Below are positions 600 through 24,407 of a stretch of DNA of 27,189 nucleotides, piece by piece. Source of the stretch: a virus; the UHGV virus genome UHGV-0126599. One strand, written 5' to 3'. Each line of letters starts with the position of its first letter. Position 1 is the first letter of the stretch. Made by a program: the position numbers and the translations under genes. The notes under the pieces were generated by a model. That model was not told the DNA's origin, made no database searches, and saw only the letters and a list, made by a program, of their open reading frames with translations.

Positions 600-1148
600 T
601 CAGCTAGCTGGAAACTTTTTATACAGAGTTGAGAGCCCTACTCCATACGTTTTTGATACGCTTTGTCGTGATTCACCGGTTGCCATCCGCTCCCCCATTT
701 CCCGCCATTGCTCATCCGTAAACTTAGGCCTGCGACCACCAACTCGCCCTTTTGCCCTGGCTACGGCCAGCCCTGCTAAGGTACGTTCGCTATTAAGATC
801 AGATTCATATTGTGCTGCGGAAAGGATGTTACGAAAGTTATAGCGGCCGCTGGCTGTTTTGAGATCCACGCCATCGGTAATACTGCGGAAGTTGATACCC
901 TTTTCCTGTAACTGCTGGAACATCAACAGCGCATGCAGAACGTTGCGGCCTATCCTGTCCAGCTTCCAGACCACCAGTTCATCCCCCGGCTGCATAGTGG
1001 CGATCAGCCGTTTTAGAACCGGCCGATTCGATTTCCTCCCGCTGGCATGCTCTTCAAAAATTTTCTCACAACCCGCTGACTTGAGCGCCGTTAGTTGCAA
1101 TTCAGTGTCCTGGTGGTTTGTTGATACTCGGGCATAACCGTAAATCAT
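600..1148 (-). CDS. Serine DNA invertase (Hin/Gin/Pin/Cin family)
   Basis: Translation MIYGYARVSTNHQDTELQ...GRRPKFTDEQWREM has the hallmark resolvase/invertase N-terminus with catalytic Ser and a C-terminal HTH. ATG at 1148 is preceded by AGGAG; the upstream Met at 1256 in the ORF track is less likely. Confidence 0.9.
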   Translation of the reverse strand: MIYGYARVSTNHQDTELQLTALKSAGCEKIFEEHASGRKSNRPVLKRLIATMQPGDELVVWKLDRIGRNVLHALLMFQQLQEKGINFRSITDGVDLKTASGRYNFRNILSAAQYESDLNSERTLAGLAVARAKGRVGGRRPKFTDEQWREMGERMATGESRQSVSKTYGVGLSTLYKKFPAS

Positions 1149-1152
1149 GGGA

Positions 1153-1179
1153 TTTCTCCTGTTATGAAAACAGGAGAAA
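1153..1179. promoter_or_regulatory. Perfect 11-bp inverted repeat (TTTCTCCTGTT-ATGAA-AACAGGAGAAA) overlapping the invertase RBS
   Basis: Seen directly: 1153-1163 is the reverse complement of 1169-1179. On the invertase mRNA the AGGAG Shine-Dalgarno sits inside the stem. Confidence 0.4.
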
Positions 1180-1200
1180 CGGCGAAGCATCACCAGATTT

Positions 1201-1578
1201 TTGATGGTTATAAAAAAGGTTGGTTTGGGAGAAGCGGCGAAAAGGGATGTGGGCACAGGAGATAATCAGATACCTGATATGTCTTACTGGTCTTCACCGG
1301 CAGGCGGAATTAATTTCCCGAATGGGTTCCAGATGCGATTCGGGACTATCGCTGGTACTGGTGGAAAATTATTTTCTACGCCATTTACAAATCAGTGCTA
1401 TGGCATTGTTTTCGGACAAACATATGGAGCCAACTACTGGATGTTCAGCCCGATGTACAGAGCATCTGATCTGAGTAATACCGGTTTTGCATTCATTAAC
1501 AAAGCCTGGTCTGGCGTTCCGGGGGTAGGTTCTCAGGACGCTGGTGAATCAGTTTTTTATATTGCAGTAGGGTATTAA
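1201..1578 (+). CDS. Alternative tail-fibre C-terminal segment (S'v-like), silent in this orientation
   Basis: ORF runs through the left crossover site; after the shared GLGE residues it encodes a distinct C-terminus (...SYWSSPAGGINFPNGFQMRFG...). It has no promoter or upstream constant part in the current orientation; the fusion to the constant part would be in frame after inversion. Confidence 0.7.
   Translation: MMVIKKVGLGEAAKRDVGTGDNQIPDMSYWSSPAGGINFPNGFQMRFGTIAGTGGKLFSTPFTNQCYGIVFGQTYGANYWMFSPMYRASDLSNTGFAFINKAWSGVPGVGSQDAGESVFYIAVGY
1208..1233. repeat. Left hix/gix-like crossover site of the invertible segment
   Basis: TTATAAAAAAGGTTGGTTTGGGAGAA; its reverse complement shares the first 14 nt (TTCTCCCAAACCAA) with the site at 3005-3030. 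Confidence 0.7.
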
Positions 1579-2606: not shown

Positions 2607-3286
2607 GCTGCCCTTACAATGTAGTTAAATGCAATGTTGCGCGGCCTTGTTTCAGTCCCACCCGTCGCATTAGTTTCCCTACTGGAGGTGCCTCCGGTTT
2701 TTAATACATCATCTGCGCTGGTAGCTGATGTTGCCCCGCTAACTCGGATAGCTAATAAATGCGTATGAGATTGGATTGCTCCTCCCTGCGCAGATAGCAA
2801 TGCACGGCCACTATCTATCCCTCGACCATCATCCCAGCCACGAATAAATTCACCGCGTAAATCAGGCACTTTATTTGTCGGATAAGCCTTTGCCAGTTTC
2901 GGGTATTCTTCAGCAGAAAAAGGCGCACCGTTGCATTTCAGCCAGCCTGTAGGCGGAGTGGCCAAAGGCCACGGGACAGGCACACCAACGGGTAATGCTG
3001 AGCCTTCTCCCAAACCAAGGTTTGTGGTAATCGCTGTCGCCAGCTTTGCCACCAGTCCATCAACGTCACCATCATCGAGCGCGTCCAGTTCGGCGTTCGC
3101 GATAAACTGCCCCAGTACAGCCGCCATCGTCGACGGTTGGCGCAGCGCTTTACTGACCTGTGCGCTGGATGCTTTACCCGAGGAGAATCCTTTCTTCAGT
3201 GCGGTTAGCGTCTCCCATTCCTCCTGCGAGGTAACATTTGCATTAGCATCTGTCGCAAACGCTTTAAAATCATTAGTTCCAGCCAT
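2603..3286 (-). CDS. Tail fibre protein (short constant N-terminus plus invertible variable C-terminus)
   Basis: C-terminus ...HTHLLAIRVSGATSATSADDVLKTGG...RPRNIAFNYIVRAA is typical of Mu S / T-even gp37-type fibre tips. ATG at 3286 overlaps the upstream stop (TAATG); the ORF-track start at 3304 is less likely. Confidence 0.8.
   Translation of the reverse strand: MAGTNDFKAFATDANANVTSQEEWETLTALKKGFSSGKASSAQVSKALRQPSTMAAVLGQFIANAELDALDDGDVDGLVAKLATAITTNLGLGEGSALPVGVPVPWPLATPPTGWLKCNGAPFSAEEYPKLAKAYPTNKVPDLRGEFIRGWDDGRGIDSGRALLSAQGGAIQSHTHLLAIRVSGATSATSADDVLKTGGTSSRETNATGGTETRPRNIAFNYIVRAA
3005..3030. repeat. Right hix/gix-like crossover site inside the tail-fibre gene
   Basis: TTCTCCCAAACCAAGGTTTGTGGTAA: two imperfect 12-bp half-sites around a central AA, resembling hix/gix sites as I remember them; encodes LGLGE in the fibre. 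Confidence 0.7.
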
Positions 3287-3966
3287 TAAAGTAATCTCCC
3301 CCATGCGCCGTCATCAAAACCGGCGATGTATTCGTTATCCATGTCAAATCCAAAGAATTTTGTTCCTTCGGACGGTGTTTCGACCGAGGGTGTTTCAACG
3401 CCGCCAGCCCATACACCAGCAGCTTTAACGGTGAGATAACCCTGTTTGATAGCGGCTATCAGTTCGAGTGACACATCAGAAATATCAGTCTCGGGAAAAA
3501 CCCAGACCGATATCGTCATGTCCTGGTTATCGACGATCTGCATCTTCAGTCCAGAGCCTGCGGTAGCAGCGTCAAGGATGGGAGGCAGAGAGTCGTTCCG
3601 ACCATCCCAGTTGTTGATAGCGATTTTCGCTTTCAGAATGATGCGGTACGTCTCATCACTCAGCGTCGTATAGCCAGAATCAGGATCATATGGCCCTTGC
3701 CAGATGCCCTGGTCATATCCGAGCCCGTCAGTGTCCCAGCTGAAATAAACGCCGCTAATTGGCTGGCTGACTATACGACTACGCCCAATCCACAGGCCGA
3801 GGATATCGAGTTGCACGCCAACCGCCGTATCGATATCGAAGGCTGTTACAAGCCCTGACATAGTGCTGGACACATCAATCAGCGGGCGGGTGCTCAGATC
3901 TATATGGTCAAAAAAGAGTGGCTTGGTAGCGTGGTAGTTAGTGATCAGTTCGGTGTATTTGCTCAT
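3286..3966 (-). CDS. Baseplate wedge/tail protein (Mu gp48-like position)
   Basis: 226 aa ORF between the baseplate J gene and the fibre; ATG at 3966 overlaps the J stop (ATGA). Assignment by synteny. Confidence 0.6.
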   Translation of the reverse strand: MSKYTELITNYHATKPLFFDHIDLSTRPLIDVSSTMSGLVTAFDIDTAVGVQLDILGLWIGRSRIVSQPISGVYFSWDTDGLGYDQGIWQGPYDPDSGYTTLSDETYRIILKAKIAINNWDGRNDSLPPILDAATAGSGLKMQIVDNQDMTISVWVFPETDISDVSLELIAAIKQGYLTVKAAGVWAGGVETPSVETPSEGTKFFGFDMDNEYIAGFDDGAWGRLL

Positions 3967-21787: not shown

Positions 21788-22493
21788 TAAGGTCACGATC
21801 TCCATTACCGTCATCAACGCCAGCATCACGACGAAGGCGATCCGCTTCCAGAGACACTTTGTCAGTGGAGGCGAGCCGATGCTCTATAGATGCCTTTGTG
21901 AATTCCAGCGACTCAATGCGCTGCGTGTTGCGGTGCATGGCCTTTTCAGCAGAGGAAATCAGCGAGTGCAGATCCTTCGCTTTATCATCATCGGCAAGCT
22001 CCAGTTCAGCCTGCCAGCGCCCAATGTTCTCCGCCGCCGTCAGGTTCGCCGCGCGCAGCCAGAACAACTCATCGTCGAGCGTGAGCAGCTTCGCATCTTC
22101 GGTGATTGCATCAGAGAGCAGCATCCTGCGACCGTAGCCGCCGTGCTTAAGGGCATTCTGGTTGCCAGGCTGGAAAGGAGGGTGGTTGGTGACTACGTTC
22201 CTGCGCACACGTTCGGGTTTCGTATCTGGAGGATTCGCAGCATTGGAGGATTCGCAATCACCATCAGATGGCTTGCTACCTCTGGCCTTATCGCCTTTTT
22301 TTGCCTGCGAATTCGCAGTTTTATTCGCACTTTTCTTTTGCGAATTCGCACTACCATTCGCAATTTTGATATAGCGCTTTGCAGTCGAGTAATTCAGTCC
22401 CTGCGCTTCGCACCATTCTTTGGGGGAAATGCCGGTTTTGGCATGTTCGGACAGGAACCGTTGCTGAAGCTCGCCCCAGTCCGGCTTTGCCAT
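21711..22493 (-). CDS. Terminase small subunit (HTH-containing)
   Basis: N-terminus MAKPDWGELQQRFLSEHAKTGISPKEWCEAQGLNYSTAKRYI is a DNA-binding HTH; GGAG RBS; sits immediately upstream of TerL. Confidence 0.6.
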   Translation of the reverse strand: MAKPDWGELQQRFLSEHAKTGISPKEWCEAQGLNYSTAKRYIKIANGSANSQKKSANKTANSQAKKGDKARGSKPSDGDCESSNAANPPDTKPERVRRNVVTNHPPFQPGNQNALKHGGYGRRMLLSDAITEDAKLLTLDDELFWLRAANLTAAENIGRWQAELELADDDKAKDLHSLISSAEKAMHRNTQRIESLEFTKASIEHRLASTDKVSLEADRLRRDAGVDDGNGDRDLNDFYSDIQTDPESGSKELLDDTGSK

Positions 22494-22505
22494 TGGTCAC
22501 TCCAT

Positions 22506-22988
22506 TCAAACGAGTTCAGTCTCGATGGATACTTTCTTCATGAGAGCGTTGGTAAGCTCATCAAGAATGTATGCCTGTAGTTGCGGGGTAAGGCGTCGTC
22601 CGGCTAGTGCCGTTTTGAGCCTTTCAAACTCATCGAGCATATCCTGCTCGGTCGGTAAGCCAACAACGGTTACTTTCAGTTCCATAGTCTCTTCTCCCAT
22701 CCCCTGCAGGGGATATTTGATATTTATCTGCTCAAGGGGATACCCATTATCAAGCCCACCCGTAGATGAGCTTTGTAATGGAAAGCCGTTGTGAAAGTGG
22801 CTCTCAAAAACCACAGATTCGTGGTTTTTCTCCAGCTCGGCCAGGAACTCTTTTGTCTGCTTGTTTCGCAGATAGTGGTAAGGCGACTCAGCATCACTTT
22901 TGCCACTGGCTTTCCACATATCGGTGAGGCAGATCATGCCGTCTTCTCCGACACGGATTGGTTGATTGAAGAGGGTTAATGATTTCAT
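22506..22988 (-). CDS. KilA-N domain protein
   Basis: N-terminal region LTLFNQPIRVGEDGMICLTDMWKASGK...YHYLRNKQTKEFLAEL resembles the KilA-N DNA-binding domain; ATG at 22988 chosen over the TTG at 23042. Confidence 0.55.
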   Translation of the reverse strand: MKSLTLFNQPIRVGEDGMICLTDMWKASGKSDAESPYHYLRNKQTKEFLAELEKNHESVVFESHFHNGFPLQSSSTGGLDNGYPLEQINIKYPLQGMGEETMELKVTVVGLPTEQDMLDEFERLKTALAGRRLTPQLQAYILDELTNALMKKVSIETELV

Positions 22989-23654: not shown

Positions 23655-24100
23655 GACAGGAACAGAGCTCGCTCTGCCTCCCGCCGACGTGTCAGCCCAT
23701 TCAGCACCTTCCCACCAGCTTTATTCCAGCGCAGGAACTCATCGGCTGCACCAGCGTAATCTCCGGCGTTGAGTTTTCGCAGGAGAGTCGATGTCGACAA
23801 TGACCGCGCACCGAGGTTATACGTGAACGACACCAGGGCATCGAACTGGCCTTGTGTCAGCTTCACCCTGACAACTTTCAGCACGTCATTCTCATAACCA
23901 ACAAGCCCTGTTTTCAGAAGCCTGTCAGCGGTTTGCTGGTCGATAGTCATACCGCGCTTTACTGGCTTTCCGTCAACCGGATGGGTCCAGCCATAGCCGA
24001 TGGTCCACGGCGCATCTCCCGTTCCGGGGTCGGGGTAAGCAGTCAGCCGACAACCTTCAAATTTTTTTATCAGAGCAATTCCGTCAGGACTGGTTTGCAT
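23651..24100 (-). CDS. Phage lysozyme (GH24-type endolysin)
   Basis: [17 protein letters not shown]...WTIGYG...[12 protein letters not shown] motifs; ATG at 24100 preferred over the TTG at 24127. Confidence 0.85.
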
Positions 24101-24407
24101 CGTCAACTCCCGCCTTTTTTGCTGCAAGTTTTTTAATCAGATTGCCGATCGAATCGGTGCCGATGTATCCAATAAAGACGCTGGCTATGTAGGCGAGGTT
24201 GCTGCTCAGGCCGATAAAGTCCAGAAGGTCACGAACGAACCAGGCAATCATCGCGCACATCAGCGCATCAATTAGCGTTTTTGTTACCGCGCCGCCGTTA
24301 TAGCGACCACGCAGATACGCCATGATAAAAGCCAGCATTGCACCAATACCCTGCTCCTTGGCGGCAAGTAGCGCAGCGATGAAATCTTGTTTGTATGGCA
24401 TTTTCAT
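24084..24407 (-). CDS. Class I holin with dual-start motif (lambda S-like)
   Basis: [39 protein letters not shown]... is near-collinear with lambda S107/S105, including the Met-Lys-Met dual start; GGAGGTGA RBS. The ORF-track N-terminal extension is rejected. Confidence 0.9.

Follow-up and report, generated by a model that had tools for sequence, protein, structure and literature searches.

DNA invertases are needed in tiny amounts, since a host-range switch would otherwise flip constantly. The manner in which this low invertase level is set is, to our knowledge, poorly documented for the phage Gin/Cin/Pin group. Serine recombinases autoregulate via their own DNA sites, as exemplified by the res sites of Tn3 and gamma-delta and by the overlap of an invertase promoter with a crossover site. 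In the com-mom system of phage Mu, a hairpin masking the translation start is opened by a dedicated activator protein, Com. Transcripts reading through into IS10/Tn10 are subject to fold-back inhibition, as Davis, Simons and Kleckner are said to have reported in 1985. For IS200, toeprinting and fusions revealed that a stem-loop in the 5′-UTR sequesters a near-perfect Shine-Dalgarno (SD) sequence, blocks 30S binding, and strongly represses translation of the transposase, and that a neighboring second inverted repeat protects against impinging transcription (PMC4513863). ISPpu9 provides another example of a transposase controlled by a structure in the 5′-UTR (PMC8450116).

The window analyzed here (the whole stretch of DNA, 27,189 nucleotides) contains a DNA invertase gene directly preceded by a perfect palindrome. 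This palindrome is probably a cis-acting translational throttle of the invertase gene, operating in a predicted mRNA hairpin. The locus resembles IS200 in that the gene is the recombinase gene of a mobile element, a strong SD lies in a hairpin of the 5′-UTR, and two hairpins are adjacent. The IS200 structure is long and imperfect (nt 69 to 138) and is associated with an antisense RNA and Hfq, whereas the stem in the window is short, perfect, and known from sequence alone. As in IS10, an upstream sequence complementary to the ribosome-binding site would silence transcripts entering from outside. However, the complementary arm of IS10 lies upstream of the element's own transcription start, whereas the start predicted for the pinL family (−31/−32) would include the arm in the mRNA, and other invertase lineages fit the IS10 layout better than the pinL family does. 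The palindrome is comparable to res site III in its location between the recombinase gene and a crossover site, in a shared hexamer, and in its span of 25 bp. Unlike the sites involved in autoregulation of the Tn3/gamma-delta res type, its half-sites lack the positions that are informative in the crossover half-sites of the pinL family. The likeness to com-mom is that of a phage gene next to an invertase locus with a translation start masked by a hairpin, the masked gene being the invertase gene itself in the window, but no factor equivalent to Com is indicated for the window hairpin.

The same element is present in phage phi80 (GenBank JX871397 / NC_021190), as 11-bp arms separated by a 5-bp spacer directly upstream of pinL. 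The phi80 record (L001) contains two repeat_region features designated IR3, at 3595-3605 and 3611-3621, with no function given. The element is thus already annotated in phi80 as an anonymous repeat. The phi80 version, referred to below as type B, is CTTCTCCTGTT TTTAC AACAGGAGAAG and differs from the window by a change of the outermost pair on both sides. In addition, the invertible segment of phi80 is degraded to pseudogene fragments, whereas that of the window is intact and has two crossover sites. A literature search on hairpin or translational control of gin, cin, pin, and hin returned nothing relevant, although we do not claim that such control is unpublished. Judged from its sequence, the element belongs to a known type of control, of which it is an unusually perfect and conserved case. 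It alters no general principle, but it matters for invertases as genetic switches and for the prediction of prophage inversion rates. For the phi80/HK225/mEp237-type prophages of Enterobacterales, a widespread lineage, it offers an explanation that can be tested.

Invertase locus and palindrome

The features of the locus are as follows.

186-481: host gene yciI, at the start of the window, with the prophage end next to it
600-1148, minus strand: serine DNA invertase gene, pinL type (182 aa plus stop), N terminus MIYGYARVST
1148-1146, minus strand: ATG start codon of the invertase gene, from the list of open reading frames and the sequence
1208-1233, minus strand: proximal hix-like crossover site, TTCTCCCAAACC AA CCTTTTTTATAA
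2606-1995, minus strand: assembly gene of the late operon, directed at the invertase gene
3304-2603, minus strand: tail fiber gene of the late operon, directed at the invertase gene
3005-3030, plus strand: distal hix-like crossover site, TTCTCCCAAACC AA GGTTTGTGGTAA, within the tail fiber gene

By its sequence, the product of 600-1148 is a member of the Hin/Gin/Cin/Pin group of serine DNA invertases, because it combines a resolvase domain and a helix-turn-helix (Pfam Resolvase PF00239 and HTH_7 PF02796, present on proteins near-identical to it) with the N-terminal motif xxxGYxRVST, through which MIYGYARVST aligns with Gin, Cin, and Hin-type invertases, and because the gene adjoins a segment bounded by two inverted 26-bp sites. 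The protein and the mEp237 phage invertase are 100% identical, and identity to Cin and Gin is 52%, with invariant residues in the catalytic region. At the DNA level, the gene and its upstream region (560-1300) are 93% identical to the pinL region of phi80. The search for crossover sites returned three matches (none expected by chance), and the two inverted hix-like sites bound an invertible segment of ~1.8 kb carrying alternative tail-fiber C-termini and assembly genes. The segment-side half of the proximal crossover site varies widely among otherwise near-identical loci (L003-L082), the variants including TTCTCCCAAACC, TTCTCCCAATTG, TGCTCCCAAACG, and TTCCGGTAAACC. This variability fits invertible regions with several partner sites, degraded ones in some loci.

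The invertase reading frame is open for 36 codons upstream of the ATG (1149-1256, minus strand), across the palindrome and the crossover site, up to a GTG at 1256, and gene callers have produced versions of 201 and 211 aa of the same protein (P0001 and P0002). An in-frame AUG at 1190-1188 was rejected as an alternative start or as the start of a coupling open reading frame, as it has no usable SD and is absent from the other family variants.

Inverted-repeat searches returned two arms, TTTCTCCTGTT at 1153-1163 and AACAGGAGAAA at 1169-1179, which are 11 nt long, 100% complementary, and separated by a spacer of 5 nt. Read in the sense of the invertase gene, the region is GCCG UUUCUCCUGUU UUCAU AACAGGAGAAA UCCC AUG and comprises four elements.

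1169-1179, minus strand: 5′ arm, the anti-SD arm, UUUCUCCUGUU on the invertase-sense RNA
1164-1168, minus strand: loop, UUCAU
1153-1163, minus strand: 3′ arm, AACAGGAGAAA, which contains the SD
1160-1156, minus strand: SD core AGGAG, within the 3′ arm, 7 nt before the AUG

These coordinates match exactly those of an 11-bp perfect inverted repeat with a 5-nt spacer that an earlier note on this DNA had placed directly before the invertase ATG. The same note was correct in locating the AGGAG sequence inside one arm, which is the arm nearest the ATG, and the palindrome between the invertase gene and the left crossover site. The stem ends 4 nt from the ATG. The palindrome is the sole perfect inverted repeat in the whole window with arms of at least 11 nt and a loop of 3 to 8 nt. 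In 300 dinucleotide-preserving shuffles, the mean number of such repeats was 0.033 per window, and 3% of the shuffles contained at least one.

Predicted hairpin and candidate transcripts

Folding of the invertase-sense RNA predicted a hairpin of 12 pairs with a free energy of −16.0 kcal/mol (z = −6.1 versus shuffles), accounting for 78% of the ensemble. None of 200 shuffled sequences was equally stable. The energy calculated for the binding of the 8-nt window ACAGGAGA to the anti-SD was only −7.4 kcal/mol. The predicted probability of AGGAG being unpaired was 0.0002, for upstream RNA lengths of 33 to 300 nt and in both orientations of the segment (in-silico inversion), in comparison to typical values of 0.3 to 0.5 for gene starts in the window. 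Among 43 candidate starts, that of the invertase gene had the most sequestered SD. The stable hairpin in the invertase 5′-UTR predicted by the earlier note was therefore recovered by RNA folding, with AGGAG in its stem. Unmasking of the SD by inverted-in sequences, depending on the orientation of the segment, was rejected since the SD is paired in both orientations. An RNA thermometer was also discarded, as a perfect 12-pair stem of −16 kcal/mol is expected to be too stable to melt at 37 to 42°C.

Two other starts in the window have a nearly fully paired predicted SD, namely those of 24084-24407 on the minus strand (0.009) and of 21879-22580 on the plus strand (0.001), the latter being an open reading frame that may be spurious. 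The octamer ACAGGAGA of the SD arm recurs at 1255-1262 on the plus strand, in the coding sequence for the variable part of the tail fiber (motif GTGD). Invertase-sense RNA reading through the segment in its present orientation thus bears a second anti-SD octamer, UCUCCUGU, which did not affect the accessibility of the SD in folding.

Upstream of the palindrome, three further elements were located.

1181-1194, minus strand: second small hairpin, GGUGA UGCU UCGCC, abutting the palindrome on its 5′ side with no spacer
1186-1191, minus strand: candidate −10 element GATGCT of a putative weak invertase promoter, inside the small hairpin
1209-1214, minus strand: candidate −35 element TTTATA of the same putative promoter, inside the proximal crossover site

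No promoter passed a consensus scan of the minus strand. A permissive weight-matrix scan gave one positionally conserved candidate, which is weak (5 bits), ranks best or second-best in 9 of 12 family variants, and consists of a −35 TTTATA, a 17-nt spacer, and a −10 GAYNYT. The transcription start predicted by this consensus match lies at approximately −31/−32 (around 1179-1180), at the first base of the 5′ arm. If this start is right, the invertase's own mRNA begins with the hairpin. The SD was sequestered whenever transcription began at −28 (window position 1176) or further upstream and was 35 to 50% unpaired when the transcript started at −26 or later. In a scan of 500-1700 for terminators, no consensus terminator was detected save the weak small hairpin at 1181-1194. 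Since the late tail-fiber operon is directed at the invertase gene and 500-1700 held no terminator other than this weak hairpin, the SD-masking hairpin would also silence read-through transcripts. On the plus strand, a promoter-like sequence (TTGATA-16-AATCAT, 1121-1148) lies antisense to the beginning of the invertase coding sequence. RNA made from this site would be the complement of the 5′-UTR and hairpin of the invertase gene, and such sites are no commoner in the region than in shuffles.

The small hairpin contains a U·G pair on the invertase-sense strand only. Among relatives, the pair counts were CG 12 and UG 4, and GC 14 and GU 1. The corresponding changes, from U·G to C-G and from G-C to G·U, preserve pairing on the invertase-sense strand only, indicating that selection seems to act on that RNA. 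This small hairpin is lost in the Yokenella relative (L499).

In the mechanism that we favor, transcription in the invertase sense would allow the 5′ arm UUUCUCCUGUU to pair with the 3′ arm AACAGGAGAAA, forming a hairpin of 12 pairs with a 5-nt loop that would bury AGGAG and stop 4 nt short of the AUG. Loading of the 30S subunit would then be limited to the rare opening of the helix, and very little invertase would be made from any transcript carrying both arms, be it initiated at the putative weak promoter overlapping the crossover site or by read-through from the late tail-fiber operon. The low level of invertase would in turn make inversion of the tail-fiber segment infrequent. We infer all three components of this scheme, namely, transcription from upstream of −28, reduced translation, and the setting of the inversion rate. 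Translational throttling is preferred because the hairpin is stable, the SD is practically never unpaired, both arms are conserved, and analogous pairings are found in other invertase lineages (see below). On the same evidence, the proposal of the earlier note that the hairpin throttles translation is probable.

Conservation and other invertase lineages

All of the 90 exact matches to TTCTCCTGTT-N5-AACAGGAGAA found in a viral contig collection are located directly upstream of the ATG of a MIYGY-type invertase gene. The element is present in 88 of 5426 complete E. coli genomes. It was also found in Serratia, Morganella, Yokenella, Salmonella houtenae, and Citrobacter relatives, with invertases that are 79 to 91% identical. 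On the basis of these sequences, the element is specific to phi80 pinL-type invertases. In metagenomes, the flank pattern TCGCC-N32-33-ATGATTTAYGG proved too unspecific as a family probe, since only 2 of the 120 loci returned belong to the family, both identical to the window, and it added no stem variants. The scan of genome contigs with the family alignment returned only distant recombinases from other phyla (39 to 52% identity), which were left out of the analysis.

The conservation analysis covered six genera (E. coli, Citrobacter, Serratia, Morganella, Yokenella, and Salmonella), represented by 36 distinct sequences of the family. Nucleotide diversity in the stem was 0.025, with 19 of 22 columns invariant, in comparison to 0.105 at codon positions 1 and 2, 0.16 for the loop, 0.27 between the stem and the ATG, 0.39 further upstream, and 0.416 at codon position 3 (stem versus third codon positions, Fisher p = 1.7e-11). 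This strong conservation indicates that the element is under strong purifying selection. The 5′ arm is invariant save for its outermost base (type B) and one singleton. The loop is constant in length and variable in sequence among relatives (UUCAU, UUCAC, UUUAC, and UUUAU), and the SD is within the stem in every family variant. Type B sequences, that of phi80 among them, show the only recurrent stem change, a compensatory replacement of U-A by C-G in the outermost pair. The singleton stem variant has one C·A mismatch.

In a test of the individual pairs, 98.8% of the cells were paired, 1 of the 11 pairs was compensatory, and 9 never varied, a result of low power as the stem hardly varies. No G·U variant of the stem was found in more than 100 loci, and no wobble or compensatory variant of the inner ten pairs across the six genera, although synonymous sites are saturated. 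In these alignments, support for the element is conservation rather than covariation, and conservation does not separate a role of the RNA from a role of the DNA. The lack of wobbles despite synonymous divergence counts against a purely structural constraint on the RNA, under which some wobbles should be expected.

In several other invertase lineages, whose upstream sequences are unrelated to that of the window, the SD likewise pairs with a run of pyrimidines upstream of it, with wobbles, loops of 4 to 22 nt, and compensatory changes. Examples of the latter are the anti-SD/SD combinations TTCACC/GGTGAA, TTCATC/GATGAA, GTCACC/GGTGAC, and GTCGC/GCGAC. The stem of P1 cin includes two wobbles. In 9 of 26 upstream clusters, the SD was more paired than in at least 95% of the shuffles. 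Mu and D108 gin, Fels-2, and others showed no sequestration, and a Wilcoxon test against shuffles gave an overall p of 0.09, so the notion that all invertase genes hide their SD was rejected. These comparisons suggest that invertase genes hide the ribosome-binding site repeatedly, though not in every lineage.

Mosaic invertases, 86% identical overall to the window protein, are encoded by mEpX1-type genes (L056 and L061-L064), which implies that recombination took place inside the 5′ part of the gene. Their 5′ end is swapped, with an N terminus reading MQIGYVRVST and a wholly different upstream region containing a different anti-SD/SD stem.

Promoter-like sequences were found over the anti-SD arm in three of the other lineages. 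The extended −10-like sequence TGGCAT[CG]NT is located at −36/−35 in 58 of 64 distinct MLIGY/VLIGY/VQIGY upstream sequences, including that of D108 gin (loci L085, L086, L235, L253, L088, and related ones), and it overlaps the anti-SD arm CATCATCTCC in Cartapus-type loci. GATAAC[TG]T occurs at −45 in 49 of 56 MQ-type sequences, overlapping their anti-SD arm, and the predicted −10 element of P1 cin, TATAAA, likewise overlaps the anti-SD arm. The overlap of predicted −10 elements with the anti-SD arm in three lineages would reproduce the layout of IS10 fold-back inhibition, which we regard as a lead, not as a result.

This layout bears on an alternative explanation of the palindrome, according to which it would provide IS10-like insulation only. 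The invertase's own transcript would start in or after the 5′ arm and be translatable, the hairpin would form only on transcripts entering from upstream, and strong late tail-fiber transcription would thereby give no burst of invertase. Besides the IS10 precedent and the three lineages, in which own transcripts would lack the arm, this explanation draws on the late minus-strand operon directed at the invertase gene with no consensus terminator in 500-1700 save the 1181-1194 hairpin, and on the partial accessibility of the SD for starts at −26 or later. However, the candidate promoter of the pinL family predicts a start at −31/−32, by which the whole arm is kept. We consider insulation alone unlikely, although it survives better than the other alternatives to translational throttling.

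The same comparisons allow a bolder proposal, which we hold to be slightly more doubtful than insulation alone. Pairing of an anti-SD with the SD, placed over the invertase's own promoter or start, could be a recurrent, independently evolved, and undescribed form of read-through insulation of phage tail-fiber invertases. The constraint on the pinL hairpin beyond pairing would then imply a trans-acting factor, protein or RNA, that recognizes the hairpin or palindrome and licenses the invertase. If such a licensing factor exists, tail-fiber switching would be regulated rather than purely stochastic.

DNA-binding and functionless alternatives

The palindrome could also act as double-stranded DNA bound by a dimeric protein, either the invertase at a non-recombining accessory site or a phage or host regulator, which would act as a repressor of, or a roadblock to, invertase gene transcription. 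Conserved arms with a spacer fixed in length and variable in sequence are, at the level of sequence, also the look of a dimeric DNA-binding site. The arms are perfectly symmetric and conserved in sequence, the spacer is fixed at 5 bp, and wobble variants are lacking, all of which speak for such an operator. In addition, the crossover sites carry the outer hexamers (TTCTCC/GGAGAA) at one of their ends, and the distance between the outer ends is 25 bp versus 26 bp in a crossover site. Resolvases tolerate such spacing differences at res sites.

The resemblance to crossover sites is limited to these features. The earlier note had stated that the arms begin with TTCTCC and that this hexamer forms the outer ends of the hix-like sites. 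The hexamer is indeed present, but the arms start with a T followed by TTCTCC, and the hexamer occurs at one end of each site only, the other ends being TTATAA and TTACCA. Pairing with GGAG fixes four of the six positions of TTCTCC, indicating that the shared hexamer is the complement of the ribosome-binding site, which explains the match without a bound protein. The outer hexamers of the palindrome are 13 bp apart (25-bp span, odd center) versus 14 bp (26-bp span) in the crossover site. The palindrome has neither the 26-bp arrangement of two 12-bp half-sites around a 2-bp core nor half-sites containing the A-tract and the inner C/G pair.

A weight matrix was built from 39 distinct crossover half-sites taken from the proximal sites of the family. 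Its information is concentrated in the AAA tract at positions 8 to 10 (1.3 to 1.7 bits per position), in comparison to 0.3 to 0.8 bits for the outer hexamer. The palindrome halves, TTCTCCTGTTTT and TTCTCCTGTTAT, which lack both AAA at these positions and the inner C/G pair, scored −8.1 and −11.3 bits, versus +11.7 to +15.8 bits for true half-sites, and 19 to 34% of random 12-mers from the window scored as well. The loop was never found in the flipped orientation among the loci, indicating that the palindrome is not used as a crossover site. With such scores, the wrong spacing, and a hexamer forced by the SD, the suggestion of the earlier note that the palindrome is an operator bound by the invertase found no support.

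Two further considerations weigh against a protein site in general. Since the candidate −35 element falls within the true crossover site, binding of the invertase to that site could be enough for autoregulation, and no second site would be needed. Furthermore, the repeats that pair with the SD in other lineages are imperfect, contain wobbles, and have loops of 4 to 22 nt, which makes them implausible as protein sites. A LexA (SOS) box was rejected because CTGT-N7-ACAG was found where CTGT-N8-ACAG is required. Taken as a whole, a DNA operator appears improbable, slightly more so than either of the proposals based on fold-back insulation.

Least plausible by far is that the palindrome lacks a function specific to it, being a repeat that arose by chance, the relic of a pseudo-crossover site, or a terminator of transcription. 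The terminator-like flag on the neighboring small hairpin (1195-1180), with the T-rich 5′ arm of the palindrome as its tail, can be cited in favor. Against this stand the chance expectation of 0.033 per window, a stem that varies less than non-synonymous codon positions do in the six genera, and the lack of a match to any Rfam family (900-1500, either strand, E ≤ 1). As to intrinsic termination, the palindrome was called on neither strand and is followed by a U-tract on neither, the only call being the neighboring hairpin. Another perfect inverted repeat, with 9-bp arms and a 17-nt loop (AAGGGCACA ... TGTGCCCTT, 546-580), lies where yciI and the invertase gene converge and has a T-rich run after it. 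It is probably a terminator that the two genes share, close to the junction of prophage and host.
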